A stretch of DNA of 62,410 nucleotides, counting the filler. It is 9 parts of 9 records of this genome, joined end to end, with 100 filler letters (N's around TTAATTAATTAA, not from the genome) between each part and the next. Parts side by side here need not be neighbours in the genome. Positions count along the whole stretch, not along the records: positions 23,801 to 30,181 come from SRR7504441_9133; 8 more parts are not named here. One strand, written 5' to 3'. Position 1 is the stretch's first letter. Every line of letters begins with the position of its first letter. The notes under the pieces are model-generated. The model was not told the origin of the DNA, made no database searches, and saw only the letters and a list, made by a program, of their open reading frames with translations. This document shows, piece after piece, positions 12,353 through 51,574 of the stretch. The position numbers and the translations under genes are program-made.

Positions 12353-13999
12353 ATGGCCCTGCCCGGCTCCCAGACCGGCGGTCCAAGCGACCCGCCGACC
12401 ACTCGGGTGCACGTCAAGCTCGACTTCAGCAACGGGGTGCAGGAGGTACCTGCAACGGCCCGGCCAGCCGCCCAGCCAGCCGGCCAGATCAACTATGCCC
12501 AGCTGCTCAGCGGGCCGCCCCCGGCCGAGCCGGCCGCCGACGAGGCCGAGTCCGGGTCGTCCGGACCGATGGAAGAATACGACGATGCCGACTCGTTCAT
12601 TGACGACGAGGGTCTGAACGAGCAGGCCAGGGACCCGCGCCCGGGCCAGGCGCTCTTCCGGGTGAGTGCCATGTCCGACGAGGAGATCGCCGTCACGTGA
12701 CCCGCGCCCCCCGGGCCGGGCTGAACCAGCGGGCAGCGCCCCGCCAGCTCCAGGACCGGCCCCGGCCAAGAAGAAGCACCGGAAGCAGCGCGTGCTCACA
12801 GACGTGTGCCACCGGGGCGGCGAGAGGCTGACGGCTGGGTGCAGCTGGAGGACCCGGAACTGACTGCGGCGCTTGAAGAGCTGCAGGCGAACGGTGGGCG
12901 ACTCCCGAGTCCGCGGGCGAGCCGGGCCGGACAGTGGGCTCCAAGAAGCGGATGACAGCTGAGCTGGACCCGATGCTGCTCCGGTGGCCCGTGGGCAGGC
13001 CGGGGTACTCAGCCCGGTGGCAGCTGCGCCGGGGCTGCGAGGGCGGCGCATCCTGACGGGCAGTTCGGGGACGACGCGCGAGAGTTGCTGCAACAGGCGA
13101 TGCCGTTTGCCACTCTCAAGGCCATCAGCAGCAAGGTGCTCCGACTGGAGACCGAGGCCAAGATCCGGGTGCGCTACCCAGCTGTGGTCGGCTCATCAGC
13201 TGAGTATGTGGCAGGGTTACAATACTCATATAACTGAGAATATGGCCATGCTGCGCGTAGGGATCAGCGCAGCCGTGGCCCAGGCGGCTGAGGCTCAGGC
13301 GGCGGCCTGCGTACCGGTCACCCCGGCCGCGGAGGGGCAGACAGTGGGCGAAATCATCCAGACAAGCGCGCCGGGCAAGGCACGGTTCGTGTGGTCTCTA
13401 GAGGTTGAGGAAGCCTGGTACGAGGTGGCTCACGCCGAGCTCCAGCTGATCGAGATGACTGTCTCTCGTAAATCGGGCGGCAAGCTCTCGGCCAAGCGGG
13501 AGGAGCGTGAAAAGCTGCGAGAGAAGGAGGAGAAAGATATGAGTAGGGCGATGTATAAGCGGCACTGTGAGGTCTGGCAGTCCGAGGGGGCCGCCCACGT
13601 TGAGTGGACCGAGCTGCGTCAGGTGCGGCCTGGACGGCTTGTGTGAGCCTCGGTCAGGCGTACGGGCGTGTCCATAGGAGACAGGCCAAGGCCGCGGCCA
13701 AGCCTGCTGCCGGCAAGACCGCCAAACCGAAGACCACCGCACCTCCCAAGTCGCCCATTGCGCCAGTTGCCAAGAAGGTGGCCGACCCAAATCAACCCGC
13801 GGACCCGGAGCCGGGCGACAAGCGGAAACGGGCCCCTGCTGCCTTACCGGCTGCGAAGAAACCGAATAAGTACACGTGGCATGCTCATGAGGCGGCAGCG
13901 GCCGAGCCGGAGCCGGCGGCCGAGGAGGCCGAGCCGTTGATGAGCTGTGAGTTTGACCCTGTTCCGGACCAGATTCTGCAGCGCTGGCAGAGGGCTGCA
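12353..13999 (+). CDS. HPC2/ubinuclein-like histone chaperone subunit (HUN motif), 3' truncated by contig end
   Basis: EEYDDADSFIDDEGL motif. Six GT-AG introns of 35-46 nt restore one frame; basic C-terminal region. Confidence 0.7.
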
Positions 14000-14099: not shown

Positions 14100-15720
14100 G
14101 TCGTGGGCAACGAGTCTTGCACAATCTATCGAGATGAAGAAAGCCCAGTCCTCGTCTGTTATCTGTTTGGCGTTTCGAAGCACCATAAAGGCAATCACAG
14201 ATGCAAACAGAATCTTGTCTTTCTCAAACAAGCCACGGCATATATTGAAGTAGATTTCTCGCGTGATGACGGTGATGATGGTTTCAACCCGAATAGCCAC
14301 ATCAGTGTTGGCTTCCGAGTTTGAGATATTGAATGCAAATAGCTTTGAAAAGTATTGGAGCGAATACTGATACATGTAGTCGATCTTACCCATGTCGGCT
14401 ATTGCAAAGTACAGCACTGAGCCTCGGCAGGCAGCAGGCCTGTACAGCTCACGCGTCTCAGCAATCAATTCATTTGTTTTTTCTGCCTAATCCACCGATT
14501 AGCCTGGCTTTGTGGGTCAATCATTAGCGGCCATCGCCTTCCCCATTCCACAAACAACCCATTTTGAATTGATAACGCATCACTTGGAAGTCCAAATGAG
14601 TTCCATTCACGAATCTTAACTGGATCTCCAAGGCACTGCTCCAGCGAAAACTGGGCATCTACCTTAATACCTACTGCCTTACACCACGCTGTCCAGTCTG
14701 CTGCAAGATCAGCGCGGTATTCAAACGTAAACGCGCCAACATACGCAATCGCCGCAGCTGACAGCAAGATATTGCCAACAAGATTTTCTCTGTCCTTGTC
14801 GAGTTGAGTGCATGTCTCTTCCCACCGCTTCTAGCGCTGAGGCCAATGAGGCCTGCTGCAAGATGTGCGTCAAGATCCATGGGTCAGTTGGACTCAAATC
14901 TCAGCAGTTTTTGGATCAACTTGGGCGGTATAACCATACCACGCCGACTTCTTACCTTGAGCTCATTAACCTCTACCAAGGCATGCTCACGAAGCAGTCT
15001 GATGTGTTGGGCACTAAGCAGAACAGACTGAGCGGCGGAGTGAAAAAGATGGTTGAGATCAATGGAAATGTCGCCGAGATGAAGATCACCCTGGCCGAGT
15101 TGCAGCCAGTGCTCGCTGAGTCTGCAAAAGAGACCGAGGCACTTCTAGAGAATGTCAAGAAGGAACAAGTGATCGCTGACGAGGCCAAGACCCAGTGTAA
15201 GAAGGACGAAGTTGAGTGCAACGAGATTGCAGCAGAAGCAAATGCTATTAAAATGGATGCCCAGAAAGATCTCGACGAGGCTCTCCCTGCCTTCAACTCG
15301 GCGGTGAAGGCGCTCAAATCTCTGTCCAAGGATGACATCAATACAGTCAAAACCTTCCCGGGCCACAGACAAGAGCGCATCCTCAGGCCAGGCAAAGAAC
15401 CAGTCGATGGTAGTACAGTTGACGAGAGATGGGAACATCCGGCATTGGGTCCGGAACTCATCACCCGACGGGCTCATCGTGAGCACCACGTGCAGATTCT
15501 GCCGGACCAAGTGGATGAAATGATCCCAGATCACCTGACTCGCACTCCAGGTCACTTGGAACGTGTCTTTGAGCTTCTCGCAGAGCAGATTGTCAAACCA
15601 GTCGCAGTCAGATTGCTCGTTCAGTCGGTCTCGGAACACACGGGACATCTCGTGAGCCCACAGCTTGAGCAGCCGGTTAGTATCTGGCACTTCCTTGTTT
15701 GTGACGGTCAGGATTCCCCC
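14100..15720 (-). pseudogene. Rearranged 3' part of dynein heavy chain: five fragments, one inverted (14832-15358 on +)
   Basis: Fragments in dynein order: GIL...WAHEMSRVFRDRL; LHVVLTMSP...IDWFFAWPEDALLSVA; TTPTSYLELI...EALPA (plus strand); KRWEE...WPLMIDPQSQANRWI; RELYRPAA...YQYSL. Intervening domains are absent. May be an assembly or amplification chimera. Confidence 0.75.
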
Positions 15721-18700
15721 AGCGTGATCTCGAAGTATTGGATGATCTTAGCAATCAGCAGCTCCTCCAACTGCAGACCCTTGCCTGTGAGCTGATCCTC
15801 AATGGCAACCTGAAGGTTGCCATAGTCCACATTTGGGATCACTGCTCCAGGGAACAGGTCCTGGATGATTGCAAGGAACAATGGGACATCCTGGTAGAGG
15901 AACTTGGGAAGATTGGAGTCGCGCATGGCTCGAATCAGCACAATTTCTTCAGACAGTTGTGACTCTGATCGCTTGAGCTGGCCAGCCATCACAAGCACAG
16001 ACTTGACTGCACGCATCCCAAAGTCGTAGTGGTCTTGCTTGGAGAGCTGCTCTGAGGACAGCCGGTACAGCTGCACCATTTTGGTGGAAAGCTGAGTTGC
16101 TGTCATGAAACCCTCAGAGAAAAGAATAATCTCCGCAATGAGCCCGTAATCGGGCACCATCATTGCCACTGGTCGGAAGAGTGCCTTGAGATTGTCTGGC
16201 AGCTCTGTCCGCCCAGCATACCCCGGATTCATTGTGATGAACACCCCAACCCCTGAGTTGAGCGGAATGTCGCGACCTTCAAACATGAATGTCTCGACCT
16301 GGTCATTCAGAGCATTGATGATGCTCAACATCATTTGCGCAATCACTGACAGCACCTCGATATCAATCCGATTGAACTCATCAAAACAAGCCCACGCTCC
16401 ACACTGCACGAGACCAGAAAAGAACCGGCCCATGATCAGGTAATCAAGCCCATCTGAGCAGTTGAAAACCACGCACTGCCTTGCGAGCGCCTTAGCCAAG
16501 TCCTTTGTGGTCTCGGTTTTGCCAGTGCCAGCAGGGCCCTGGGGAGCGCCTCCAAGCCGCACATGCAGGGCCCCAGTCAGCGTCATGTAGCACTTGTCGG
16601 TGAGCGGTGTGATCACTAGCCGGGCGCTGTTGCCTAGGTACTCATAGCCATACAAGAACTCTGTATTGGTCTGACGGAGCACGCAGTCGTCAGTGTCGGC
16701 TCCGCGAAGCCCGTTCTCTAGGTGGTCTTGCCAGTAATATCTGAGCTGCTTGGTCCACTCAAAGTCAGTTATGCTACCACAGTTAGCGTCGATCATGTTC
16801 TCAACGACCGTGCGAGCATGCACATCAATCACAATCAGAGCTCCCATACACTTTCGCTCCAGCTTGGTGAGTTTGCCCAGCACAAGCTCAACCATCCCCT
16901 GCAGCTGATTATTGCTGAACTCCAAATGTTTCTTCATTGCATCCTTGTCCTCTCCGGACTCAATCTGGTTGAGTGCTTTCTCGCTGTTTGCTGTCCAGTA
17001 GACTTGCTCAATAGCAATGATTGCCATTGCAGGAGACTCAAAGAACCACTCTGCCCGCCGGTCTTCAGCGTAAGTGTCCAGGCACTTCTTTGTGTGATCC
17101 CACAGCGAGAGCCGCATCTCCTTCTCTACATCTGTCAGCCAAAACTCGACAGAGCCGGCTGTCTGGAGTACCCTGGTGAATGCAACTTTCTCACCTTCTC
17201 CTGACACCATACCCTCGATCGACAGAGGCTTGACCTCGTCGTTGTCATCCTCGTCTAGCATGTCCTCCTCAGTCTTTTCTGCCGATTCGTCAGCACCAAA
17301 TTTGAGTGACTTGATAGAGTCGAAGCACTTGACCATGTGAGGTTGCACTGAGAGAGGGTTGCGAGTCTCCGACAGAATTTGGAGCAACTCGTCGTTCGAC
17401 AGGAAGTAAAACCGGGCAAATGAGGCCCTCTTGGTTTCTAGATAGGCTTCAAGAGACTTTTGGACTTCATCAAGGACCACGTTAGCGTTCTTGAACATGT
17501 CAAGAACTCCAGGCATGTCGCACACACCAATCGCCAGCCTGTGCTCATTCACCTTGCGCATATGCTTCTTCCAGGCAGAATCAACCTTTGCAAACTTAGC
17601 AGCCTCTAGAGGAAGCTGCTTCTTGATGTCGTCGGCGCAGAAGATGTTCTCGAGATAGAGCCAAGCTTTCTGGCACAGGATCCACTCTTCCAGGATGTCA
17701 GAGAGAAGCCGGAGCTGCGAGTCCCACAGGTTGACTTTGGTCTGGATCCCACCCACAAACCGCGAACCAAGGATGGTCTGGAGCGTCACCTGGTTGTCCT
17801 CGAGAAGCATTGAGACTTCCTCCACTGAGCCCAGAATAAACAGATCTCCACCATCCCGATAATCTGTCACCTCAAACTCCTGAGTCTGCCAGCCCTCTTC
17901 GATCTTATCCAGTGTCATTGACAATGCGTATTCGCCGCCTGCAATTGCACAGATCTCGTTGATCTTCTCCTTGTGCTCCTCGTCAAAGATCCCCCATCGC
18001 CACAGATTGTCCAGATTGAATGCTGGCAGGGTGTTGTCTGAATCAAACAGATGCTGTCTCTGAAAGATGGTGAAGATCTGCATCCACGGCTTTGCAGACT
18101 TCATTGAGTCTTGACCAAGCTCAATCGCCAGCGGCAGAATTGCCTTGAAATCAAACATGATCTGGAACAGATCATCCACCACTGCATCTGTAGTGTCCTG
18201 TTTCTTAAATTTCCGCTGAAGGTCCATGCAGCTCTTGAGCATTGCGGCGGCATCCTGCTCCATCTGGGCCACGTCGAGGTCCACGAAGTCCGACGCCTCC
18301 AGCCACTGGCTGTTCTTCTCTGTCCACTGGTCTTTTAGGCTCCACACAGAGTAACGCACGTCAAACTTCTCCCTCGCAGCGTCCAGATGAGTAAAGAAAT
18401 CGCGATTCTGCTCCTCGGCCTCAGGCTGCTCCTTCTCCTCCTCGGCCTCAGGCTGCTCCTCAGCATCCTCCTTCTCCTCCTCCTCCTTCGCCTTGGCAGC
18501 CTGGGCCTCAGGGTCGGCGGCCAGCTTAGCGGCTTCAATTGCTGCTTGCTGTCGCAGGATGTTCTGCTCGAGGGTCTTCTGGTAGGCCTCAAACATGTCG
18601 CACTTCTCTTGGAGCGCCTTGAGCTGCTTCTCCATCTCGTCCAGATCATCAAGCACCTCCTGGCTCGACTTGACCTTTGGATCATTGTACTGCTCAGCCT

Positions 18701-21003
18701 CGAGCTCGGTGAGCACTCGATCGAGCGCGTTGTTGTTCTCGTCGATCCGCTTCTCGAGCTTGTCCTGGTTAGCATTCTGTTGGTTTACTACCCGCTCGTT
18801 GGCTGCGATCAAGCCGACCTCGAACGCCTTGACTTCCGAGAGCATGTTGTCCCTCTCGACCTCGATTGATGCATCGATCTTGACGTCGAACTTGAGCAGC
18901 ATCTCATATAGCTCCTGCACCTCCAAGTTGTCCTGCTCGAGCCTTGGCCGAACCGCCTCCATCTCACCGATTGCAGTCACGTACTCCACAAAGTGCTGCA
19001 GGCCCTCCGGGGCCTTGTTGAGCACGCTCACCTTCTCATGCAGCTCGGAGGCGAAGATCACGCACTTGCTCACAAAGTTCTTGAGCAAAAGCCCCTTGAG
19101 GTCGCCCATGATGTTGTCCGACACGCTCTGCAGGTCCTGCGCGAGTCCCTCGGTCTTGACCTTGAAGATCCCCTTGAAGTCAAGCTTCTGCATAGTCTCA
19201 ATTTGCGTCAGCCACTCGCCCACTTCGTTCATCCGAGTCCTGAACGCCACAAACTGCGGCTTCTTGGCCGCAAACGTCTCGATCCGCCACTGCGGATCAA
19301 ACTGGGTATCATAGATCTCTCTGTAGCTCTCAAACGCGAGCGCGTAGTCCTCGATCACTTTATAATTATTGTCGAGCACCGTGTTCATCCCATCCTTGGT
19401 GTACATGAACACGGTATTGCTCTTGATCAGCTGACCCACGTTCGGGATCTGAGCTTTCACTCCGTGGAAGTGCAGCTTCAGCGCCGGCAGCTGGACCACA
19501 CGGGTCACGTGCTGCACGTTTTGCACGATGTCCTCGACCATCTTGTCCACTGCGTCTTTGATATTGTCCAGCCCCGGGTCGAAGTACGACACTCCACCCT
19601 CACCAAACTGGATCGAGACTTCAAACAGTGACTTGTTCCGCTGCTGTAGCTCGTGCATCTCTGTGATTGTCTCCAAAAACTTCTGCATGGTTGACACTGT
19701 GTGCATCACCAATGTATCCACTACCATCATATCCACTAGTCGGATGAAGTCGTCCATCATCAACAGCTCGGCCTCTGCCTTGTGCACCGCCGCAAGCCGG
19801 GCCGCCTTCTCTATCCGGATCTGATACATCGACTTGCTCTTCTCAGACCCGGTCTCCTCTGCGTCCAGCACGTGCTCATCCGGCAGGTGCGACCGCTGGG
19901 TCAGGTCGTCCGCCACGTGGTCGATGCTCTTGAGCAGGTGCGTGCAGACCTGAGTCTCAAACTCGGTCAGTGCCAGTTGTCGCTGCTCCTCCGACTTCTT
20001 CCGGAATTCCTGCAGTTCGTATATCTTGGGCTTGATCATCAGCTTTGTCTGCTCCATCTCGCGGCACTGCCGGGTGATGTCTACCAGCGTGGGCGCGAAC
20101 GAGGGCCGGGCCAGGTAGAGGTGCTTGAACAGCTTTGACCGCTGGTTGAGGAAGGTCCTGTATTTGACATTGTGGAACCAAATCGAAAAGAGCTTGGTGC
20201 CACAGAAGCGCTTGAAGAACTGGATGGAACGGAGCACGTCGAACAGGGTGGACTTGCGGATCCACTCAGCCAGAGCGATGAAGTTGGACGGGCGCGATGG
20301 GTCCACGTGCACCAGCCCTGAGAGCGACATCGTCCAATGCTGCGTGTGTGACACGTTCAGCTCGCGCCGCGACACCACCTGCCGCCCCGGCGCTCAAAAC
20401 ACACTGCACACTGGAGCGCGCTGACCTCCAGCGCGTAAGGATTGAACGGTTTGGCGTCCGAATCCGGTTCGCTGCGAGTGGTTGAGTGGCGGCCAGGCTG
20501 GCAGACCAACCGGATCAGATGCACAAACTTGATCGAAGTGTTCTGGCCGTGCTTGGCGAAGAACGCGATCGCCTCGGCGCTGGTGGTTATCTCGGGCAGC
20601 TCGTCTGAGTCTAGCCGTTGGAGCGAGCTGGTGGCTCCGGCACGCTGCCGCTCTGGTAACTCCTGTTTGGAAGGCATCTCGAAGTCGACGATGTCATTGT
20701 TCGAATACTGGAACAGCGAGCGCTTCGATTTGCCCTGCTTCAACGGCAGCAGCCTGCCCCACCGGTGAGCCCCAGCCCGGGTGCGCTCTGCTGACCTCTG
20801 CTGACCGCCGGTGCTGATCAGCCCCCTGCCAGGCCGCACGCTGGGTGACGGCGGCGAGGCCGAGCTGTCGAACCGAACCTGGCCCTACCGGCGGTGAGCG
20901 GTCAGGCCGGGCGGGTGCGTGGGGCGGGGGGTGGGAGCAGCGGGCGGCGGCACACCTGGGGGCGGGTGGGCGGGGGGTTTGAGTCGGGTTGTTGCCGGGA
21001 CAT
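15708..21003 (-). CDS. Axonemal inner-arm dynein heavy chain (DNAH6-like): tail, linker and AAA1
   Basis: ATG 21003; introns 20885-20955, 20754-20795, 20472-20510 and 20379-20425; then a 1556-aa exon with FARFYFLSNDELL, GPAGTGKT, CFDEFNR and YDFGMR. The frame ends at a deletion junction near 15718. Confidence 0.92.
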
Positions 21004-21272
21004 CTTAGCGCGGTCGATGGCCGGGAGGACAGACGAGGCGGAGGGTGAGAGCCCAGGCAGCCCCGGCCCGGCCGACATCCTCTCTAGCCGGCTGCTGCTC
21101 CGCTCACCAGCCGCTGCTCACCGGCATCCGAAGACCCAATCTATCTTGGCTTATTATAGGACGCCCCAACGGACAAAGATACGCGGTGAAGGATGGACTC
21201 CCCTTGGAAGAGGGCATCCATCCTCTGCTGAGCCGAGCAGTCAAGGCAGTGGGCCGTCCGGCGGGGCCGGCG

Positions 21273-21667
21273 ATGTCGCACTACAGACCGGTCACTCCGA
21301 TGTTCGCCGACGGCGAATCCAAGGCTCGCGCCCCCCCGGGCGCCCCCGACGGTCGGGTCAGGGCTGGAATCAGCTGCTCAACCACCATGGATGGGACTTC
21401 AAGTCGGTCACCCGGAGCCCGGCCTCCCCGCCCAAGGCGCCCCCCCAGCCCCGGGCCCCGGCCCAACAGTCGGCAGTTGCGCGCGCTCAACCTGCCGCCG
21501 CCGGTGCCGTCTAAGGTCTACAGTGACTCCTCGCTGGAACTGAGTAGCCGGGCTGGGCCGGCCGGGGCGGACGGCCGGGGGCAGGGCACTCGCACGGGCT
21601 GGTCTTGCAGTTCGGGGCGCTCGATGCCATCAGGCACTGGACTCCGGAGATGCTAATCGAGAAGTAA
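21273..21667 (+). CDS. TIP41-like protein, N-terminal half
   Basis: Introns 21324-21361 (GC-AG), 21437-21476 (GC-AG, probable) and 21544-21584 give ...HGWDFKSVTRSP...LNLPPPVPSKVYSDSSLELRHSHGLVLQFGALDAIRHW, which matches the TIP41 N-terminal pattern (GW...LPEMxF..S.L.L.H..G..I.FNALDAL). Confidence 0.7.
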
Positions 21668-21670
21668 CCC

Positions 21671-22458
21671 CCGAATATTATTTTAGTGACATATAGTGAC
21701 TTTGTAGTGACATTCGGCGCGGCTGATCATGGTGGGCAGGCCTTCGGCCGAGGGCGAGTACTTGGGCGACGGCGCCAGCCGCACCTCCGTGTCCATCAGC
21801 ATGACCTGCCGCCGCTCCGGACCAAGCAACCAGGCAACCCACCGGCTCCCCGAACTCAAATGCGTACCGGGTGTCCACCAGCCGGGCCTGGGACCAGCTC
21901 AGGCAGGCGAGGAGGCCGGTGCCACCCCCTGGCGAGAGCACTGGAGCAGCCGGAGCAGCAGCAGCAGCCGCTCGGGCATCACCTGCGGCGGTCGTTAGAT
22001 TGCGGGCGGAGTGGCGGCTCGCCCGGATCTTGACCGCCAGCCGGGTCTGGCCCTGCTCGCATGTGTGCTCGTAGAGCGTCACGTCGTCATAGAACATAAC
22101 TTGGTCTTTGGATGTGTACCTGCACCCAAAGCGTTGGAGCGGGCGGCTGCACGGCGGGCGGACCGATCCATCGGCAACTCCTGCTCGGTCTCGCTCAGCA
22201 CCACCTGCGCCGCCGTTTCATTCCACTGGAATTACTACAAGTAGGTGCTAGTGTTCACTAGTGTACACATAGAGAGAGAGCATTGGTCTAGTTAGCATCA
22301 GCGGTGGTATGGACCGGATTGCCGCCCATGGTGAATGCGGGAGGCCCACCCTCCGCAGCGGCCGACTCAGGGTTCGAGGACCACATGTGCGCAGCCGGCG
22401 GTTGGGAGGCGAGCCCCGGGGCAGATACAAGAACAGCCCTGCAGTGTCTACTATTCGG
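21671..22458. repeat. Inverted repeat CCGAATA (21671-21677) / TATTCGG (22452-22458) bounding the inverted TIP41 segment
   Basis: 7/7 perfect; 9/10 when extended (CCGAATATTA vs CCGAATAGTA). Confidence 0.65.
21683..22438 (-). CDS. TIP41-like protein, C-terminal half (divergent)
   Basis: Acceptor CTGCAG|G at 22439/22438 and an in-frame ATG at 22386. Five introns, including 22226-22314 and GC-AG 21983-22022, give QVMFYDDVTLYE...LAVKIRVMPERLLLLLR...ARLVDTRYAFEF, ending TAA at 21683. Confidence 0.8.
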
Positions 22459-22674
22459 AGACAAGTGCAAGTCGTGATCTGAGCATGCACCGTTCTCAGC
22501 AGCACGATTATTAAACCAATGCGTGACCGGCGTTGACGAACAGTTCGAGATTGATCGATCAGAGTCTGGTAACCGTCAATAAATCTAACATCAACCCTTT
22601 ATAATCCCTCATGCAACGGATTAATATCGAAATGAATATCGGAATGATTGAGCCAATAGTTCGTCTGGCGAGTG

Positions 22675-23700
22675 TCAGACAGGCCCCTCCCTGCTCTTGG
22701 GCGAGATCGAGCTCTCGGCCCGCCGGGCGCTCCGGTCGGCGCTCTGCTCGGCCACTGGCTGGCCGGGACCCACTCGGACTGGGACTGAGTCACTCACCTG
22801 GCCGCCCCGGCTGGCCGCCTGTTATTACTAAGCTGCTACCGCGCCGGATTGGCTCGCGAGCACCAACGAGCACAGACCCGACATCCCGGCTGCCCGAGCG
22901 CTCAGCCAGCCACCAGCCTGCTCCAGCTACCCGGCACCCGGAAGCTGCACTGGCCGCGCGCGCACTCTGCCCCGCTGAACAGCTCCAGCTCGCCCGGCCC
23001 GTTGGTCAGCTTGGCTCGGACAGGCCCGACAGCGCCCATCGCAACCCAGCGGAGCTCGACCTGGCTGCCGGGGGCGAGCGGAGCGTGCGGCCACGGGGCG
23101 GATATGGCAAGCATCAGGGGACCGCGGCTGCCGAGCAGGTGGCGGAGGTCGGACTCGATGCGGCCGACGTGGTCTGGGATCACGGGCTGGTGTGCCATCG
23201 CCGGCTGGCGGAGCACCACTGCTGGCTGCTGTGCCATCACAGGCTGGGGCTGCAGCATCACAGGCTGGGGCTGCATCACAGGCTGGGGCTGCAGCACCAC
23301 AGGCTGGGGCCGCGCCATCGCAGGCGCCACCACCACTTGCGGGTCCGGTGCGGGGCTGGGCGAGTGGCTCCGCAGCTCGACTGGACTGGCTGGCCGCAGC
23401 TGGACCGGGCTGGGCGTGCCGGCCGGGCTGGGGGTGCGCCGGCTCAGCCTGGCCTGCTCCTCCAGCTCTGCTCTTCCGTCCTCGCTCTCCCGCAGCCGGG
23501 CCGCCAGCCGGGCCCGATCTGCCCGGAGCCCCGCGCTCTCCTTGCTGCCCTCACCGATCGCCCCCACCCGCCGGGCGTTCACCTGAGCGCGGCCGACCGC
23601 CGACGCTCCTTGGTGAGCGCCGCCTGAGTCATCGCAGCCCGCCGCTCCACCAGCCCGCGTTGCTCCTCGGACCGCTCGGCCTGCCCATGCTGAGCCGGCC
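22675..23700 (-). CDS. Hypothetical coiled-coil protein with QPQPV(M/V) repeats, 5' truncated
   Basis: ORF 22902-23582 plus two 41-42-nt GT-AG introns leading to TGA at 22675. Confidence 0.55.
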
Positions 23701-23800: not shown

Positions 23801-24820
23801 AGAGCCCTGTGATCATCGCCGTCGGGTGCGGCATCGGGCTGCTCATCCTGGCCGGGGCGGTCTGGTTCCTCTGCCGGCAGCGGCCGTCCCGGATGCGCCG
23901 CCCCCCCGACCGACCGACCGAGGCCAGCCGGCGCTCCAAGGCCGGTACAAACAGTGCCAGCGACGACAGTGCCAGCGACGATGATACCGCCCCCGACCGG
24001 GTCTCCAAGGCGGCCCAAGACAGTGCCAGCGAGCATGACAGCGGCACTGACCGAGTGGAGCCCGCGGCACGCGAAGGGGGCGGCGGTGGCGCTGACGGGG
24101 CGTTGCGGGTGGTCGGGGCACGGCGGCCGGAGCTGGAGGGGTTGGTTGGTCTCTGGTTGGTGGCGGTGGGCAGCCAGTCGGTGGCGGGCTGGAGCTCGGA
24201 GCGGGTGGCGGCGGCGCTGGGCGAGCGGCCGGTGGAGCTCCGGCTGGAGGGGCCCGAGGGCTCGGTGGTGAGGCGGTTCAGCCGGCCGGGGCCGCTAGGC
24301 TTGGATATCGAGCGGCTGAAACTGTCGGCTAGGAGGAGCGGGAGCCACAGTCGGTCTGGCCGGGCGGAGGCGGTCAATGCGGCGTGGTGGAGGCAGGCGC
24401 TGAGTGCGGAGTCTGGAGAGCCTCGGAACTCGCCGCGAAGGTCTCGCGGCCAAGCTTCGGATTGGCTGGCGGCCAATGGATTTTGGCGGGGCGGGGAGGA
24501 CGAGCTACCGAGTGATGCGCTGGATAAGGCGTATAGGGAGCTTGAGCAGGCTACGGAGCTTAAGCGGCAGGAAAGGGCAGAGATGAAGGCAAGAGAGGCA
24601 GAAGGCTGCTGCGTGAAGAGGGTATTTTGCATGAATTTCGATTCATTTAGAGTATTATTGATTACGGTTGATACAGGTGGATTCCATGGAGCAAGTCAAG
24701 ATGCATATGAATGTGATTGCGCTGAGAGACCACTGCGTCAGCCCGGCCGGCAAGCCCATTCACGAGACATTGCACCCGCCAAAGGATTGTGGGTGTGAAG
24801 GCGAGCTCGTGTTGATTTGA
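23801..24820 (+). CDS. Single-pass membrane protein, 5' truncated
   Basis: TM segment IIAVGCGIGLLILAGAVWFLC; probable AT-rich intron 24622-24676; TGA 24818-24820. Confidence 0.55.
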
Positions 24821-25203
24821 TCATCGGTCGCTACTAGGGTCGCTGAAACCTAGCTGAAACCTGTGTTGTCAATGCTATGTCAAGGCTGCCTAGCCCTTGT
24901 TGCAAGAATAAACTCGTGCGCAGGGCTTAATCATAGAGTGCAAGAAGGGGTGCTGGCACCGGTCCCCCTCTCTACGCTTCGATCGCGTCATCAAACTACT
25001 TGGTACATAATACTAATCCGCGCAGTACAAGGTTCAGTTTGATCAATCCTCATTACTGTACAGCACACGGTAAAACACTTAATACACAAGTAGAGACGTA
25101 TGAGAAGCCTGAGCTTTAATATTAAAATATATTTGCCTCATGGCGACATTGGAATTCGTGACACATACATGCATGTGCACTCAGACACAAAAACTGTTGT
25201 ACA

Positions 25204-28200
25204 CTATTCATACTTCTCATCCCCTTCATACTTGTCATCCCCTTCTTGTTCCTCCTCCTCCTCCTCCTCCCCCTCAGGTTGCTGGATAACGTTTGCCTCA
25301 AGCAACAAGTCCATAAGTAGTTGCTTGAGCTCGTGCACTCCAAGACTCCCTTCTCTACTAGAATATTTGATATACGCCTGCCAGCACCATACATCATGTA
25401 ACCACCCAAGTCAGCAGTCAGATTCGCACCTGATAGATGAATCCATTATCGTCGTCATATTCTAAAGTAATTTCTGGAGTATACCCCCCCCACATCCATG
25501 AATGCAAGTAAGGCTCTTCCCACTTTGATTTGTACATTGCATACTCGGCTGTATACTCCACTGACTCGGCTATAATCGTCCGGCGTGACAGAAACTCGTC
25601 CAACGCATCCAGGTTCACCGCCTGAGAACAAACACGTCAACATCAAACAATAATCAGATTTGACCTGGTGCATTTCAATTCGTGCGCTTGTCCATCCAAC
25701 TTCGTTCTTTTCTACTCGCCTGTTTTGCATGTACCAGAAAAAGCCCCCTACCATAGCCCATAGGCTGAGCGCCAAAATCAACCATAGCATTGGCTGATCT
25801 CCTGCCCAAGTACCCCAGAAGGCATCCTTGACCCAGCTCGTTGAAGTAACAGACCATTCCGTGCCTAACAATCTATCTCCGACTCCAAAGACTAGGAATG
25901 CAATCAACAACTGCTGCACACCGCGAAGACCTTCGACGTTTTGCTTGCTCCCAGAATACATGAATGCAAGCAATCTCCGAAGGTTCACCTCTATTTCCTT
26001 GAACGTTGTATCTGAGCGTTGCTCATACAAGTCATCGCTCTTTCGCCAGACAAACCAGAGCTCTGATTGTAAGGCTGTCATATGCTTATCAACATCAACT
26101 GATCGACGCTCTAGGTCATGCAGCAAGTCCTTGAAATTTAGTAGATCATACACAACGTGCCGCGGAGTCTTTTCATGAACACCACGCTCAGTTTGCAGCC
26201 TTGGCAAGATGACGTTTTTGAGTGCCTCGTTTGAATGCATCATAACCTCCTCCATATACACTGCATCTCGTGAGAGGTCTGACAGTGCTGTGTGCACCTT
26301 CTTCACAATGTTTGGGTCTCCCGCAGGTTTGTAGACCATATCACGGACCTTTGCCAACTCATCCATCATGGCAAGCATGCGGATAAGCATTGAGCCCACG
26401 AACATATGATGACTGTGCAACATTGAGTAGACACAGAGAAGTTGCTCGTACTGGAAGCGGGCTGGGCCAGATACCACAATACCGTTGTAACCAAATATGA
26501 ACAGGTCGTCTTTTGTCAGCTGTTCCACAGAAGTAACTTCTGCCAGGATTTGTCGCAATTCGTTCTCGCGCTTGTCACGATCAAGATACTCCTCTACAGG
26601 TAGTACAGGATTTAGCTGGGCAGCAAATATCATGTAAAATTTCTGCCGGTTGGTCTGGAAGCCCCGATACACCAATTCAAGCATTGCTCGTTGACGTGTG
26701 GAAAGAATCGTATCCATGACTCGAGAGGAGTCTTGCTGCATGTCAACCAACACGCGCGAGAGGGAGTCCAGTGAGATGTGATTCTTGATGCGCTCCTGAA
26801 TTGCCTCGATCCTGATTCCACAAAACACACACCCACTAACATGTACGTGCACCCCAAAGTTCTCCACTTGGATGATTCCTTCCTCTTCTGGAAAGTAGAT
26901 TTCAGCCTCCAAGTTGCATCGCTGGCCCTCCACTATGTCAACAATGTTAATGTTGGTCAATCCAGGCTCCACGTCGAGCGTCGTATCTCCAGGAGCTCCG
27001 TCGACAGTTGCTGAGTAGAACCCTGTGCTGACCCTCTCATCTGCTCCAACCTTTGAGATGAGATTTCTAATATTATTTGCACCCACAGGAATCCACTCGG
27101 ATAAAATGATTGTAACATCGTCCAGGCTGAGGACTTCGTTCTGTGTAGCCTCCAGGTTTGTGATCCCAAGAGTCGCCTCCTTTGCACGGCCTCTATTCGA
27201 AGTTAGCTTCTTACGGACTCCAGTCTGTGATCTGACATAGAAAGGTAGGTGCGGACTCGACACGTATGATACGTCTTCGCTTTCGGTCACCTTCGTCAGC
27301 ATGGTGAATCCTGACTCTGACTTGAGAACAAATTTGTCATTAACCCAGTGAACCATGAGCAGGTCATCGTTGGACCTTGACTTTGAAACTGCACGGGGCG
27401 CTGCAATAAACTTGTCGACCTTGCGGGTGTGCTGCTTTGGGATGTGCTCCAGCGCGTTTCGACCCTCCGGTGACACCTGATAGCAAGTGACAGGGATGTG
27501 GCTCTTGTCGACACATTTGAGCACAAATATGAACCCGCGCTGCCTGAGGGCGTCGATGTCTGCCTTGCCCTCCTGGCTGAAGTTGAAGAACACGCGGTGT
27601 CTGCCGACATATTCACCGAGCGGCGAGTAGTCGTACGTGAATATTTTGTTTACAATTCCCTCGTACAGCAGCACCATCAGCGGCGTCTGCGGCATCCAAA
27701 CCTCCAGCTTAATGCCATCAGGCGACTGCGCTGAGTACTCCCCGATCAAATACAGTAGCTTCCACTGGTCCGATGTCAGCGCGAACGACGACGCATCCGC
27801 CTGGGTATCATCCTCCGAGTCTGTCTCACTCTCACTGGCGGCAGCAGCCGCTTCTTCCATCATCTCCTCCAGCGCCAGCAAGTGCGCCGCTCCGCGGCCG
27901 CCCTCTTGGGCCAACTCAGCCCGCCTGATATTGACTAGCGATCCCAAGTCCTTCTTGTGCTTGACTCTGTACCCTTGGCGCTTCCTCAGCACCTCCCTGG
28001 GCGACTCAGGCTCTTCGTACAAGTCATTGGGGCCCAACCCCCAGCGTGCCCTGGCGAACCCCCCAGCGTGTTGATACATCTCTATCGAAGCCTGCCGGGC
28101 TGGTGCCAGCCGTTGCTCCCCCACCCGAGTCCGCTTCTTCTCGCCGCCCGCCTGCAGCGCTGACACTTGGTGCGACCGAGTCTTCTCGATCCATCCGAGC

Positions 28201-28292
28201 CAGCCGCGGAGCCGCGGGTTCTCGGCCGCGTCGACAGCGTCGTCCATGATCTCCTGTTGCCCAGGCGACCCCACCTTGTATTTGTCTCCCAT
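25204..28292 (-). CDS. About 1050-aa conserved-looking unknown protein with helical bundle and two C-terminal TM helices
   Basis: Long first exon (LLYEGIV...YDYSP...SQEG...YVSSP...GIIQVENFGVH) plus two 3' GT-AG introns (43 and 52 nt) to TAG 25204. Confidence 0.75.
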
Positions 28293-28532
28293 TGCGCCTC
28301 ACGCCCCGCCTAGCGCGCCCCCGAGTTTCTGCCGCATTTATTTCCCGATTAGGCGGACTCTGCAGCTGCGCGGCGACTGAATTGAGGGACTTGATGATTC
28401 CACGATTCAGTTGTGCACAGTAATGCTACTTGATGATTCAGTAATGCTACTTGTAACCAGTGGATTGGTAGCAATATATGTTTATATGCTAGCAAGCTTG
28501 CTAAGCCGTCTAATAACATTCCGCCAGCCTGT

Positions 28533-30181
28533 CTATGCCAAGGTCGGATCGGGACCACTTTGCTCAGCGGCGGCCTCAGACACTGCAGAGACAGCCAACC
28601 CCTGCCGACCGGCCCTTGCCAACGGCTCCTCCGCGGGCCTTTTCGCATTTTCAATCCGCTTCGAACGATAGCTCGATGCCAGTTCCGACAACACAAGCTT
28701 AACTTCAGCCGCCGTAGGCCGCAGTCTCGGCTCTAGCGCAAAGCATCTCCGGAGCAGCGCTTCAACCGCCTGTCGGACCCCTTTGTCCGACACTTGACTC
28801 ATGCTAGAGCGCTTGATCAGCCAGATCTGACTCAAGTCTGGCACGAGCTCTCCATTTCCGACCTTGGCAGGAACCGCCTTCGGGTCCTCTGTCGGATAAG
28901 GCTTCTCGTTGCATGTCCAAAGACACCAGATCGCCACTCCCAAACTAAACACGTCCGCCGCCCGCCCAAATGGGGCGTACCGATACTCCTCGGGCGCCCG
29001 CCACGAGCCCTGTATGCCGTTAGAATCCGTTGGACTAATGCGGTCACCTGAGCTAGCGGCTGGCACGTGAGCTCGCCCATGAATGGAGTCATCGCCCTGT
29101 TCAAATCCCCGAGCGCCGCTCGGCCGGCTCGGACCCTGCGGGAGGTCAAGGTTTCCTAATCGAGGGGAGCAGTTACATTAGTATTAATATTTCTATTAAT
29201 ACTAATGGACCTGAAGTTGGCTAGTTTGACGTCGCCGTGTATCGCGCCGAGGCTGTGGACCGCCTCCAGCCCGGCCGCCATCTGGCTCGCCCGCTCGATC
29301 AGCAGCCCGGGATTATCCGAACTGCCGGCCGGTCAGGATGCCGTTGGGATGCCGTTGGGATGCCTGCAAGTGAGGGCGGAGCTCCACTCTACTAGCACCA
29401 CACTGCTCCGCTCGCAATACCTGCCGTTACGCCTGAGCCCGCGCTGTACATACTATATACACTACTGAGGCTATATACAGCATACAGTATAGTTATATAG
29501 ATACTGTACTGTACTAGGCAGCAGCACCCGATCAGCTGGACCGTCGCGGGATCACCCAGCAGCCGCCCCGCCAGCGAGGCTTCCTTGGCCACGTCTGACA
29601 CTGCCACCAGCCGGTCCAGCCAACGGACAAACCAGTGCGACTGGACCTGCCAATCCGTTCAAAATGCCGTTGGAATGCCGTTGCCTGCTCGTTCTTCTCC
29701 AGCCGAAGCCGCTTCACCGCCACCGTCTGTCCATTCACTTCAGCCGGATGGACGTCCCGCCACAGTCCCCGCCCCGTGACCGGCTTCGGCGGCAGCGTGC
29801 ACGCCGGCCCTGTCCGTTACATTCCGTTAAATCTCCGTTGGGCCCGGTCACCGTCCCCCGGCAGCGGCGGCGGCCCGCTGCCGTCCCACTTGAGAACAAA
29901 CGACCGCATCGCCGGGAGCCCGTAACGGACGACCGTTGGGACCAGCACCAGCAGCAACCCGCAGTGCAGCGCGGCCGTCCCCCGCCGCCGCAGCGGGAAC
30001 CGGCCGATGTGCGTCGGCCAGCTGCGCCGCGTCAGCCCACAGCCAACGGCGAAGGCACCGGGCGAGCCGGGAAGTGCCGGTGTCCGTCAAGGCGATGAGC
30101 AGCAGGAGCGTCAGAGAGACCAGCGTGAAGACAGTCCCGGCCAGCAGCGCCAGCACCGCCCCGGCCTCGACCGGCAGCATC
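28533..30181 (-). CDS. Membrane-anchored protein kinase with 7 introns, 5' truncated
   Basis: Introns 30022-30058, 29810-29851, 29647-29684 (GC), 29421-29527, 29322-29363 (GC), 29136-29210 and 29010-29047 give GRGLWRDV, VAVK, HGDVKLAN, DLN, WRAPE, DVFSLG and RPTA. Confidence 0.85.
29176..29207 (-). repeat. Perfect 14-bp intronic hairpin with GAAA loop
   Basis: Sense strand CATTAGTATTAATA-GAAA-TATTAATACTAATG. Confidence 0.95.
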
Positions 30182-31642: not shown

Positions 31643-32525
31643 TCACGAGTAGTGATAGGCCAGGGTCACGATCAGAAACGTCACCATAGAGACACACCCC
31701 ATGTACCCTAGTGTGATTACCATATGGAATGCCCAAAGATTGCCCCCAGCAATGCACCTGCAGCAGCTCAGCCCAGCGCCCAACTAGCGAATGAGACCTG
31801 CCAAACACACCACAGTGGTGGTCGAACCCGGTCACACACCTCTGGCAGGTCCGGCAGTGGTGCGAGCCTTTGGGCCGCCAAACCATGCACCGCACGCAGT
31901 ACGAGTGCTTTAGGTCAGAATCCCCAGTCTGGTTGGTGCCGGGCATCCAACCGCCCTGCTCGATGCACTTGGACACCAGCGGGGGCAGCGGGAAGCAGCG
32001 CTCCTGGGTCCGGTCGACCACCCCTGGGTCACCGACGAGGATGTAGACCAGACCGAACAGCGCCAGCAGCCCCTGGCCGTTCATTATGACCAGGCAGGCT
32101 ATGTACGCCGACTCCGGCTGCCCGCCATCGCCATGCTGCAGCGGGATTGCCACGCCTGCGCCCCCAGGCTCACCGAAGGCCGACCAGCCGGCACCGTTTG
32201 TGATGGCGAGGATAACGAGCACAATGCCGCAAACCACCCCAATCCCGGCCCAGTGCTCCTGCCAGTAGGCCTCGGCCCGCTCGGGCAACGGGAATATCCG
32301 CTCGAGCGCCTCCACGGTGGTTGGCACCGGCTGGGGCTCGAGGGACCGCTCCCGGGACCCAGGAGGCCGTCGATCAGAGCCGGGTCTGGTGCGCGCTTCC
32401 TCTATGTCTATGTGCATGTGTGGCAGGTTCTGGGATGGGTGCTGGATCACTGGAATCGGCTGCGGCAGCGGCCCCGGGCCCTCCGGGATCCGTACCGCCT
32501 CCACACCTGTCGATGGCAACACCAT
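31643..32525 (-). CDS. DHHC palmitoyltransferase
   Basis: CVRCMVWRPKGSHHCRTCQRCVTGFDHHC; a 40-nt intron restores FGRCIAGGN. Confidence 0.92.
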
Positions 32526-35191: not shown

Positions 35192-36076
35192 TCACATCTC
35201 GCCGCACTCTGACACCTACGGCCCACCCACTGAGCCTGAGCCGCGCGGACGAGACGCCACCGTTACTGACAGCTTGGGCTTATTGGCGCCTCCCACCGAG
35301 ATGTTTTCTATCTGAGCACAAGGCGCTCGACCGGGAGCGGTTCGGTGGATCACCTTGCGTATAGTGAGCAACCCATCAATCACCTTGCCAAAAACAACGT
35401 GCTTGTTATCCAACCAGTCGCACTTATCGCAGGTGACGAAAAACTGCCGGCCGGTCAGCCCGCCGGGCCGCGAACGGTGACCTGGCAGCCGTTGGTGTCG
35501 CGCCCCGAGTTGGCCTGACCCACACAGTCGGCGCAGGCGGAGCAGGCCGCACCATCGAGAGCAGCCCTGGCTCGACGTGCTTGAGGTCAAAGTTCTCGTC
35601 CTCGAACTGACTGCCGTATATGCTAAGGCTCCCGGTGCCGTCCCCCTGCGCCCGGCTCGGGCCAGGTTCAGGCCCGGGGGCCGCCTTGACGATGTCGCCG
35701 CCCTGGATCATGAACCCTTTGATTACCCGGTGGAACCCGCAGCCTTTGTACCCCACCGGCACCCCCGCCTTCCTGCCCTCCCACGCTGGGCCCTGGCCGC
35801 CTCCCGCGCGCACCGGAACTCTCCGGTGCACAGCTGCCGAAAGTTCTCTGCAGTCCTGCCGGCCGCATAGTGAGCCGGCCCGGAGCCCGGGGGGCACTTG
35901 GGGCATCTGTCGGCGAAGAGCTCCATCTTGACGCGGCCGGAGTGGTGCCCCCCGATCGCGATGTCCATGAACACCACGGGGTTGCCCCCTGCCGCCGCCC
36001 GCTCCGCCCGGCCCCCGAGCCGGCGGGCACCGTTGGGCCCGGAGCCGAAGCCGCCACTGCCAATCTTGCCCGACAT
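35192..36076 (-). CDS. Cyclophilin (cyclophilin H-like), 8 introns of 38-45 nt
   Basis: Introns 35989-36030, 35856-35897, 35773-35813, 35646-35684 (GC-AG), 35515-35552, 35444-35481, 35312-35353 and 35216-35260 give NPVVFMD...[18 protein letters not shown]...[14 protein letters not shown]...[13 protein letters not shown]...ECGEM. Confidence 0.92.
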
Positions 36077-40542: not shown

Positions 40543-43022
40543 AGGCGATCAGGGGCTCGACCAGGCTGCTGGTGGCGGCGAAGGGTGCGCCAAACAAGCG
40601 GAAGCTGTGGACGCTGCATGCGGTCTCTCTGGTGCTGGGGCTGTGCTTCCTCATCATCTGGCCATGGGCTGAGGCCGATCCCGACGCGTTCGATCGGACG
40701 GATGACGTCTACTACAGATACGAGTGCAAGACCTATGAGTACTTCCAATCTGCCGGGTACGGAGTGTCGGCCTGCTATTTCCGCGGCATGTACGGCTGCT
40801 CGTGGCTGAGCAAGCCGATCTACACCAGCCTGTTCGGGTGCACAAACCCGTCCGGGATCGCCAAGCTCTTCCTGTCGCTCTTTTGGCTGTGGCTGGGGCA
40901 GCTGCTGACCGAGCAAAGCCACCAGAAGCGCACCGCATTCCAGCACGAACGGACCACTCTGGTCCAGCTGCTCGGGCTCACCTTAATCGTGTACAGTGTG
41001 CTCGAGATGAGGGGGACTGGCATCGGCCGGTTCGACTTCTCAGCGCTGCTCGCGTAGCCCACCACGGCTGGTTGGGCCTGACGGTGCGTGTGCAGGTTCG
41101 ATTTGATCGTATACGGGCTCACCTGGACCCTTCTCTTCTGCTCATGTCCATTTCCATCCGAGCAGGAGCAAAGGCTTTCGCGGCTGGGAGCCCAGGTCTT
41201 GTTCCTGTGCAACGTGATGTTGTCCACCATCGGCCGGTTAAACACGCCGCCCACCACAGTCGGAGTTGTGGCCATCGTCCAGGCTGTGGCGAGCGCCGGG
41301 GTCATTGCGTTTTGTGTTCTCCGCCAGGGCCAATGCTCCCGGCCGCCCAGCTGCAGAGCAATTAAGCTGGCAATTAAGTCAATTGCGACGATTATCCTGA
41401 ATCTCGGGATGGGCTCCAGCGGCAGGAGCAGCGATGGCCGCGCGGCCTCTGCGCGGCTCTCGTGTGTGTCTGGAGTGTGCCGAGATCAGGATCCGAGGTC
41501 TGAATTCGGTCATTCTGCTGGGTTCCTGACGGCTACAGTGTACGTGCTGGTCGTTCTAGCCCAAGTGTTTACAGCCATGACATATCTTTTCAGGAATACT
41601 GCATCGCAGATAGGCAAGGATGAATCGTGTAGCCATTACGTCGGCAGAGACGAGTCCGCGGCTGGGGCGGCTGCCGCATTCTGCGCATATAATTACTGCA
41701 TGTTTCTTCTATTTGCCGTCTGCCCGCTGCTCGTGGCGATCGACATCGAGCTGCACCGGCTCTATTGGCAGGGTGGGGCTCAATTAGCGTTCTATGACAT
41801 TCTCGGAAAACTGCCTTGCAACAAATATCGAGCTTCGCACGGGGACTGGGCTGAAGTTGATCTAATCGCGGCTGGCTCCGAGGGGATGGTACACACGGCC
41901 GTGTTGGATAGTTACAGACTCCAGCTGAACACTCGCCAGGGCACGGATCTCATTTGCGTCAAAACGCCACATCTTGACGGCCTGGATGCACTCACAGCGG
42001 TATATAGGGAAACCGCCACGTTGATCCATATCATGGAGACACTGAAGGCGCCGGCGGAAGAGCACATTGTGAGGCTGATTGGGTTCTGCGGGGAGCTCCC
42101 GAATGTGGCCTTGCTGCTCGAGTACTGCGACGGCGGCACCCTTTGCAATAGACTGCTATCCGCTCATCTGGCATTGGAGGACAGCCCTGAGCGCAGCCAG
42201 AGTTGGTCACCAAAGACCTGGTTTGGCAAGGACTCGGAAAGCGCAACAGGCGATAGCAGGCCCTCTACCCCACAGGCTCAGGATACGTTACACAAACGGC
42301 TGGGCTGGGCTCATCAAGTAGCAACCGGGATCCGAGCGCTGCATCGCTGCCAAGTGGCTCACTTGGATATCAAGACCGACAACATCTTGCTGCGGAACGA
42401 GGTAGCTTACATCACCGATTTTGGATGCTCGGTGCTGGCGGAAGACTCCAAGAGCGGATGGCTCCCGGCCAACACAGGGACACGGGCTTTCATGGCGCCG
42501 GAGCTCAACCTCGCCCAAGATTGCCTGGGGGCTAGGCTGCAAGTAGACCCGTTCAGCTGTGACGCATTTTCGTTCGGGTTCCTGCTCTACGAGTGTGTGA
42601 CTTTCAATCGCGAGCCCCGGTGTCGGTCTAGGGCTGATGAACTGCTCGATGCTGCCGCGCGGGATAGACTGCTGCAGGCCGCACCGGTGCTCGAGCAAGG
42701 CGAGCTGGATGGGGAGTGGGGCTCGCCTTCGGATGGTGTTGTCCAGATACTAACAGACTGCTTCAAAGAGAATCCGAATGAGCGGCCAACCTTCAACACC
42801 ATCGTGGACAGACTTGCAGATGAGTGTGCAAGGATGTGCGAGCCAATTGCTGATCTCGACGACAGCAAAGATTCTGTCACAGCTGCTGAAGACCTCACAG
42901 ATCTCGGGCCGCGCCAACGGATGTTCGAATCGGGCGAATTGCCGACCATGGGACCGGTTGCTGTAGGGCCAGATCAGGATGAAGAGCTCAACTTGACAGT
43001 AGTTGACATGCCGGTGATTTAG
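40543..43022 (+). CDS. Multi-pass membrane protein fused to a TKL-like kinase, 5' truncated
   Basis: A 42-nt intron near 41054-41095 joins two ORFs; many hydrophobic helices, then GSEGMV, CVK, HLDIKTDN, DFG, GTRAFMAPE. Confidence 0.85.
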
Positions 43023-51515: not shown

Positions 51516-51574
51516 CCCGACGCCTGTCTCCCTCACTGCCCTGCCTTCATTGGTTTCAACTTTTGACCAGGGAA

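Follow-up and report, generated by a model that had tools for sequence, protein, structure and literature searches.

How does a genome whose introns peak sharply near 40 nucleotides (nt) come to hold introns of 75 and 107 nt within a single gene? This question is raised by a truncated receptor-like (TKL/RLK-type) protein kinase gene (28533-30181, minus strand) in a eukaryotic stretch of DNA of 62,410 bases with an overall GC content of about 0.6, hereafter called the window. The window consists of nine contigs joined by artificial spacers (44 N + TTAATTAATTAA + 44 N, a six-frame stop linker; junctions at 14000, 23701, 30182, 36635, 40443, 47517, 52899 and 58344), so that features lying across a junction are not natural neighbours. 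All three introns at issue, the two in the kinase gene and a probable intron of 55 nt, are located within the contig at 23801-30181. A preliminary description of this DNA had proposed that the spliceosome measures a fixed donor-to-acceptor distance and that over-long introns fold out their excess as hairpins to restore about 40 nt, with palindromic repair insertions filtered by selection as the alternative. Our analysis points to a different ordering of these ideas. With a probability of roughly 55%, the 75- and 107-nt introns are standard introns of about 40 nt that gained AT-rich, self-complementary DNA insertions; the length left after subtraction of a hairpin would then be close to 40 nt because of the history of the intron, with no measuring device needed.

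Both long kinase introns are needed for an open kinase frame and, judging from the sequence, behave as spliceosomal introns. Removal of six of the seven inferred introns gives, by three-frame translation and in the spliced model, a single open frame of 381 amino acids (aa) over seven exons, in which the kinase landmarks VAVK, LIGYCE...LVEW, HGDVKLAN, GDLNRA and APEE follow each other in order; the gene, assigned by Pfam to Pkinase/PK_Tyr_Ser-Thr, is cut off by the contig end at 30181. From 5' to 3' on the minus strand, these introns are a 42-nt intron (29810-29851, GTGACC...GGACAG, three AACGG units), a 38-nt GC-AG intron (29647-29684, also with three AACGG units), the 107-nt GT..AG intron (29421-29527), which joins ...QLIG/YCERSSVVLVEW in the spliced frame (the slash marks the junction), a 42-nt GC-AG intron (29322-29363) with an 11-nt tandem, GCATCCCAACG, repeated twice, the 75-nt GT..AG intron (29136-29210; donor CAG/GTCCAT), which joins ...KLANF/R VRAGRAALGDLNRA, and a 38-nt intron (29010-29047, GTGACC...ATACAG) preceding GSWRAPEEY. 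Their boundaries are supported by the open frame together with the kinase homology. The spliced product matches the other, intron-free kinase of the window (41082-43022) in blastp, which pairs HGDVKLANFRVRAGRAALGDLNRA with HLDIKTDNILLRNEVAYITDFGCS with no gap across the 75-nt junction, and on the Pfam Pkinase profile the exon that precedes the 75-nt intron covers positions 104-129 and the last exon 163-257, with a middle exon of 29 aa bridging the two. An alternative 41-nt splice that keeps the hairpin exonic was rejected: it fits the frame of the last exon, but loses the DFG-like segment and inserts about 70 aa between Pkinase positions 129 and 163. A protein search with E-values up to 1e-5 yielded no longer homologues of the kinase, and a metagenome scan with its C-lobe returned one locus (L001) with 32% identity, an uninterrupted, bacterial-looking kinase open reading frame (ORF) of 1156 aa, and no related locus.

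The excess of the 75-nt intron resides in a perfect inverted repeat of 32 nt at 29176-29207 (intron positions 4-35, GC 0.16). It reads CAUUAGUAUUAAUA-GAAA-UAUUAAUACUAAUG, with a 4-nt spacer that is GAAA on the sense strand and with 14 base pairs (bp), all Watson-Crick and none G-U. Compared with dinucleotide shuffles, the fold of the whole intron reaches a z-score of -4.88 (0/200 shuffles as stable) and its hairpin part one of -6.8 (0/500), so the hairpin of the preliminary description, correct in coordinates and sequence, lies far beyond chance. Eight perfect hairpins of at least 9 bp were found in a scan of the window, this being the only one of at least 12 bp, and a perfect 14-bp stem was reached by 0/30 simulated windows of locally matched composition. 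Similarly, the 34-nt insert containing it (-14.2 kcal/mol) is more stable than 224/224 intergenic windows matched in GC and length (minimum -10.3); these were taken on both strands from the AT-rich DNA of the same genome, and as they overlap and cover about 11 kb in total, they are not independent trials. The hairpin alone folds with -13.2 kcal/mol on the sense and -12.3 kcal/mol on the antisense strand, the gain from the GAAA loop on the sense strand being 0.9 kcal/mol. The lack of G-U pairs combined with near-equal stability of both strands reads as the signature of a DNA palindrome and not of RNA selection on one strand; because all 14 pairs are Watson-Crick and both strands fold about equally, the insert also appears to be young. 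As had been claimed, the tetraloops of this intron (GAAA) and of the 55-nt intron (UUCG) both read correctly on their sense strands. They are closed by A-U and U-A pairs; the extra-stable GNRA and UUCG forms are closed by C-G. A mirtron or tailed mirtron, in which a hairpin at the intron end reaches some 20 bp or more and can thereby serve as precursor of a small RNA, was considered and rejected, as the stem has 14 bp (17 bp with exon bases); a search of the kinase gene region with E-values up to 1 gave no Rfam match.

The layout of the intron, CAG/GT-CCATTAG...CTAATG-TAACTG...CAG, suggests how it arose. A block of 34 nt, made of the perfect 14-bp inverted repeat and its 4-nt spacer, would have entered directly after the donor GT, and the sequence following it (GTAACT...CAG, 41 nt) would be the old intron with its old donor and thus the probable ancestor. 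Deletion of these 34 nt indeed leaves CAG/GTAACTG...TTGAC...CCGCAG, 41 nt of standard intron length with a donor-like site of its own (29136-29176, minus strand), whose donor (2.7) and acceptor (5.0) scores fall in the range of 29 short introns and which folds like its shuffles (z -0.03). The palindromic-insertion alternative fits better than the ruler, and the remainder is by itself a complete, normal-looking intron. Any insertion into a standard intron gives such a remainder, which accounts for 75 - 32 = 43. In addition, the excess is foreign in composition to the intron backbone because the inserts have a GC content of 0.16-0.32 (0.16-0.18 for the 75-nt intron, in a genome with GC-rich introns), whereas typical introns have 0.6-0.85. 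The presumed old donor GTAACT is intact 34 nt downstream of the other, at the standard 41 nt from the acceptor, with a score of 2.7 versus 4.0 for the upstream site; splicing from it would lengthen the mRNA by 34 nt and put it out of frame. A branch-like TTGAC, a branch site by motif only, lies 14 nt from the 3' end, so that on this motif the stem sits in the donor-to-branch interval, as zipper stems do. When the flanks are included, the last CAG of the exon pairs with CUG, giving 17 bp with a 3x3 internal loop that holds the donor GU.

In the 107-nt intron, the candidate insert is about 70 nt of low-complexity, TA/GTAC-type sequence. Its AT-rich core (29444-29516, minus strand; 73 nt, GC 0.32) is built from TACAGTA, TATATAG and their reverse complements, and it is flanked by GC-rich sequence of 11 + 23 nt, which together make 34 nt. 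The preliminary description had placed two hairpins here. The GT..AG ends and both stem pairs are present in the sequence, and hairpin 1 is predicted with pair probabilities of 0.7-0.93; hairpin 2, with about 0.01, is not, and the intron shows no excess stability over dinucleotide shuffles (z -0.39, 62/200). The structure with both hairpins has -15.0 kcal/mol versus -35.3 kcal/mol for the minimum free energy (MFE) fold, in which the entire intron is closed and 4 bases remain exterior. For the core itself (-20.0 kcal/mol), 123/500 dinucleotide shuffles but only 2/500 mononucleotide shuffles were as stable. Because dinucleotide shuffles are strict for a sequence of TA, AT, GT and AC steps, the intergenic comparison was added, and here the core exceeded 258/258 matched windows and strands (mean -9.3, minimum -18.7). 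Both inserts of the kinase gene are thus unusually self-complementary for the AT-rich DNA of this organism. A patchwork of repeats was not found in the core, in which repeat cover stays within the range of dinucleotide shuffles.

The remaining long introns look different. The probable 55-nt intron (24622-24676, plus strand; GT..AG, GC 0.29) brings back the one frame downstream whose coding score is positive, and its 6-bp hairpin AUGAAU-UUCG-AUUCAU (24631-24646) is both present, as described previously, and predicted with pair probabilities of 0.78-0.99; its stability, by contrast, is within chance (z -1.22, 26/200 shuffles), and 15.5% of matched intergenic windows are as stable. RNA data came from one public run (X1), a marine metatranscriptome with a 0.05 share of words in common with the contig. 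On 23801-30181, the X1 RNA assembled into a single contig covering 25097-25532, which has a poly(A) end at 25097 and skips a 52-nt GT..AG intron (25378-25429, minus strand), the only RNA-verified intron and part of the window; the kinase gene and the introns 29136-29210, 29421-29527 and 24622-24676 have no coverage in this run, which covers 25097-25532 only. With a z-score of +0.64 to +0.71 and no stem that would bring its remainder into 35-47 nt, the 52-nt intron is a mild counter-example to the ruler. Unverified long candidates of 110, 111 and 123 nt gave z-scores of +0.95, -1.14 and -1.47.

These introns stand out from a narrow length distribution. Genes were predicted by dynamic programming with codon log-odds trained on long ORFs, a flat prior of 25-200 nt for intron length and learned splice-site weights. 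Of 44 introns predicted in this way, 29 have 35-47 nt and 15 at least 52 nt; the curated set (n=39), in which curation leans to short solutions, comprises 35 introns of 35-47 nt plus those of 52, 55, 75 and 107 nt, so that the earlier statement that most introns fall within 35-47 nt is upheld by both sets. Among the 15 calls of at least 52 nt, two were kept (52 and 75 nt), six were re-read by eye as standard introns or as introns of the preliminary description, and seven were omitted (4493-4615, 6476-6672, 12697-12801, 20826-21001, 22205-22314, 51536-51711 and 62178-62288). The gene finder thus over-calls long introns, and most of this long class proved artefactual on inspection. Rejected calls include one of 133 nt (31758-31890) that contains the DHHC motif of a palmitoyltransferase, one in which a 57-nt exon had been fused with the two kinase introns around it, and one that is actually two 38-nt introns and a 33-nt exon. 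The 71-nt dynein intron 1 of the preliminary description was not located in the window, where the 5' end of the dynein gene is ambiguous. Typical introns of the window have a GC content of 0.6-0.85, combine the donor (A/C)AG/GTG(A/C)GC with the acceptor GCAG and carry a motif resembling CTGAC 10-15 nt before the end; 3/39 of the curated introns are apparent GC-AG introns of standard length (38-42 nt; 29647-29684 and 29322-29363 on the minus strand, 1609-1646 on the plus strand). Intron lengths that peak sharply near 40 nt, with few longer introns in the tail, are the ordinary "minimal intron" pattern of compact eukaryotic genomes; the peak is common to the window and these known genomes, and only the make-up of the tail is at issue here. 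One of the omitted calls, 4493-4615 (minus strand), is either a candidate intron of 123 nt or a very short intergenic spacer with AATAAA, situated between a SASA-esterase ORF and the next in-frame ORF. By hand alignment it is closed by a long-range stem of 14 bp with 4 G-U pairs on the sense strand (17/200 shuffles as stable), which in a genuine intron would mean a remainder of about 19 nt instead of 40.

To be read as a ruler, hairpins should bring long introns closer to 40 nt than shuffled sequence does. For this comparison, the criteria implicit in the preliminary description were used, i.e. stems of at least 6 bp in which G-U pairs may occur, a loop size of 3-21 nt and a maximum of two hairpins that do not overlap, and the controls kept the splice-site ends while the interior was dinucleotide-shuffled in 300 trials per intron. 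A remainder of 35-47 nt was reached by 112/300 shuffles of the 75-nt, 196/300 of the 107-nt and 200/300 of the 55-nt intron, i.e. by 37-67%. Since shuffles reach this range so often, remainders near 40 nt are not evidence by themselves, and in the shuffled-control check that the preliminary description itself had named, run here on the introns of the window, clustering near 40 nt did not go beyond the controls. As for normal introns, 18/35 contain a stem of at least 6 bp, whose subtraction leaves 6-25 nt. All 35 have an MFE between -2.9 and -21.4 kcal/mol, with a median of 8 exterior nt, and they fold no better than their shuffles (mean z 0.08; none with 10/200 or fewer shuffles as stable). 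A device reading about 40 unpaired nt would mis-measure half of the ordinary introns. In its strict form, the fixed-distance ruler is contradicted by these data, and what survives is a weaker version, an upper length limit that stems can rescue.

How could such insertions have arisen and been tolerated? Their shape suggests an origin at the DNA level, by snap-back or templated repair synthesis or by slippage of palindromic low-complexity DNA. Error-prone repair of double-strand breaks produces snap-back and templated insertions, which show perfect inverted repeats around a 3-4 nt spacer as well as mosaics of short repeats, both direct and inverted. The 75-nt intron resembles them in its perfect inverted repeat with a loop-sized spacer, and differs in that a search of the window gave no nearby template for the AT-rich arm. 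At the RNA level, the insert would fold on itself co-transcriptionally (-13 kcal/mol) and bring the upstream donor beside the old one. Folded in this way, it would keep the donor-to-branch path near normal, like the zipper stems of yeast, which probably helps tolerance.

Several observations weigh against an insertion into standard introns. The 62-kb window holds no second copy, donor sequence or target-site duplication for either insert, the insertion being read from anatomy, and neither the metagenome scan nor the protein homologue search revealed an ortholog or paralog with an uninterrupted 41-nt intron. Dinucleotide composition fully accounts for how well the core of the 107-nt intron folds, so this core may be a plain low-complexity expansion. 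Moreover, hairpins over 5' splice sites hinder splicing; here the stem covers intron positions +4 to +6, and its extension by CAG-CUG pairing places the donor GU in an internal loop, which should hinder splicing more than help it. The X1 RNA, which covers 25097-25532, offers no read that tells which donor is used.

Among the other explanations, the surviving version of the ruler is that the spliceosome is length-limited, i.e. that introns beyond about 47-52 nt are spliced only if their excess base-pairs and that selection passes self-folding insertions. We regard this as unlikely. The tight peak (29/44 raw and 35/39 curated introns at 35-47 nt) speaks for a limit, but the tail consists of just four long introns, two of them in one gene, and the RNA-verified intron of 52 nt does without a stem. 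In favor of selection for folding, the inserts of both long kinase introns are at the extreme of foldability for the AT-rich DNA of this genome and are located upstream of branch-like motifs; yet shuffles attain the target remainder in 37-67% of trials, hairpin 2 of the 107-nt intron is not predicted to form, the 55-nt intron is unremarkable against both shuffles and intergenic windows, and the unverified candidates of 110, 111 and 123 nt give z-scores of +0.95, -1.14 and -1.47. The same rule would shrink 18/35 normal introns to 6-25 nt. Both tetraloops, read in the sense direction, belong to the GNRA or UUCG class; the sense advantage of the GAAA loop amounts to only 0.9 kcal/mol. A precedent exists in yeast (PMC12350175). 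The more sweeping proposal of a hard spliceosome limit near 50 nt, under which introns grow only via self-zipping sequence and RNA structure acts as a general buffer for insertions, is more doubtful still.

That a small non-autonomous mobile element, a micro-MITE (miniature inverted-repeat transposable element) or introner-like foldback, inserted at the donor and supplied the new GT seems quite improbable to us. Perfect 14-bp terminal inverted repeats with a short spacer would suit such an element, as would an insert that starts exactly at the exon-intron border and regenerates GT, but 32-34 nt is far below the usual size of MITEs. There is no other copy in 62 kb (best other match 12 nt, E 0.2), two non-eukaryotic collections, viral_contigs and genome_contigs, gave no exact match to the central 30 nt of the palindrome, and the flanks show no target-site duplication, though the palindrome makes the borders ambiguous. 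Introners that form hairpins are on record for marine protists (PMC7789003). Slightly less probable again is a device for donor choice, in which the stem buries the first base of the old GTAACT donor and exposes the upstream one, deciding between a productive and a 34-nt-longer, frameshifted mRNA. The case for it is one of structural reasoning: base pairing in the stem ends with the G of GTAACT, the donors have similar scores (4.0 and 2.7) and use of the old one would shift the frame, while the extended fold partly encloses the upstream donor too. We give the least credence to an artefact or a dying gene, with the palindrome as an assembly or amplification error or the kinase as a pseudogene with drifting introns. 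The assembly is fragmented, with an inverted segment and internal deletions in the dynein contig, the codon-usage score of the kinase is weak, and a search with E-values up to 1e-5 found no close kinase homologues. On the other side, the frame of 381 aa is open over seven exons with the kinase motifs in order, and a 14-bp AT-rich hairpin exactly within an intron, leaving the frame undisturbed, is unlike amplification chimeras, which are long inverted segments.

Zipper stems in yeast are said to have been studied earlier by Rosbash and colleagues. [quoted passage not shown] The 75-nt hairpin is alike in occupying the same interval and in being more stable than shuffles, a property found in this intron only, as the 107-nt (62/200) and 55-nt (26/200) introns fall short of it. 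The yeast introns with zipper stems are long, mostly 400-500 nt, and their stems were shown by probing and mutation (PMC12350175), whereas the case made here concerns 75 nt and is sequence-based only. Unlike the zipper stems described there, the stem in the window begins as early as intron position +4, from where pairing can continue across the border into the exon, and it is a perfect DNA palindrome where the yeast zipper is an evolved stem with G-U pairs.

Introners, which are also known in Micromonas and Aureococcus, offer a second comparison. Those of Amoebophrya carry terminal inverted repeats, form multi-copy families, pair the two intron ends and are often flanked by direct repeats (PMC7789003). 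Shared with the window are a palindrome in an intron of a (putatively) marine protist, a hairpin that joins distant parts of the intron and a probable insertion origin at the DNA level; in contrast to the introners of that account, the window insert has one copy in 62 kb, a stem at the 5' end only, no direct repeats in view and canonical splice sites. In fish, structure-dependent introns with (AC)n/(GT)n repeats have been described (PMC4691745). Their low-complexity complementary repeats, which fold and so bridge the splice signals, recall the TA/GTAC-rich core of the 107-nt intron, but the fish introns are long, with two repeat tracts near the splice sites, whereas here a single short core is self-complementary by composition only. 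Keyword searches of open-access text gave no account of a protist with introns of about 40 nt in which RNA structure compensates for over-long ones, and nothing specific on short-intron marine stramenopiles.

Genes in the window mostly have few or no introns and are separated by AT-rich islands. Next to the kinase gene, an ORF of 947 aa (25455-28298, minus strand) has no Pfam match in the local library; its 3' end is the RNA-verified part, in which the 52-nt intron lies and polyadenylation occurs at 25097. Its nearest Atlas clusters are eukaryotic, with MJ1566_N and MJ1567 domains (scores 0.95-0.96), and Oomycota is their commonest phylum. A marine stramenopile-like protist is a reasonable guess for the source organism. 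Elsewhere, a perfect 10-bp AT-rich palindrome, TACAAGTACA-CA-TGTACTTGTA (3413-3434), occupies the spacer between two convergent genes and may be a shared 3'-end element.

The dynein heavy chain gene (14465-20393, contig 14100-23700) is not collinear. A minus-strand ORF of 1561 aa stops at position 310 of 327 of AAA_6, and the next minus-strand piece (15343-15747) corresponds to an AAA+ lid and AAA_8 137-205, with the AAA2 and AAA3 modules missing. On the plus strand, 14833-15360 matches AAA_8 209-257 and positions 2-113 of the stalk (MT), and 14465-14830 on the minus strand matches MT 295-336 and AAA_9 1-46. The arrangement suggests that about 0.5 kb is inverted and that sequence on its flanks has been deleted, in either a chimeric assembly or a rearranged gene, and whichever the cause, it calls for caution on assembly integrity.

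Another peculiarity concerns the composition of the kinase introns. Five of the seven (29010-29851, minus strand) are made of AACGG-bearing units some 10-12 nt long, such as GCATCCCAACG x2, and 11/12 sense-strand copies of AACGG in the gene are intronic. Window-wide the motif is not enriched (58 and 61 copies versus about 67 expected per strand); in the curated introns of other genes there is no sense-strand copy and one antisense copy, in the intron 35444-35481. Tandem duplication may have lengthened these introns; alternatively, the units may represent repeated motifs that resemble branch sites or bind proteins.

Taken as an insertion into a standard intron, the 75-nt intron would show in clean form how a young palindrome entered exactly at a splice donor and left the old donor intact 34 nt downstream. 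The analysis also demonstrates that a "length minus hairpins" of about 40 nt is to be expected from insertion history combined with permissive picking of hairpins. If, on the other hand, a length-limited spliceosome were true, such introns would let the way in which intron-defined splicing measures distance be read from natural sequence, as in an assay, and the zipper-stem idea from yeast would extend to genomes with introns of 40 nt. For the organism itself, the analysis provides a description of its intron signals, namely a length peak at 35-47 nt, donors of the form GTG(A/C)GC, branch motifs resembling CTGAC and acceptors reading GCAG, along with some GC-AG introns.

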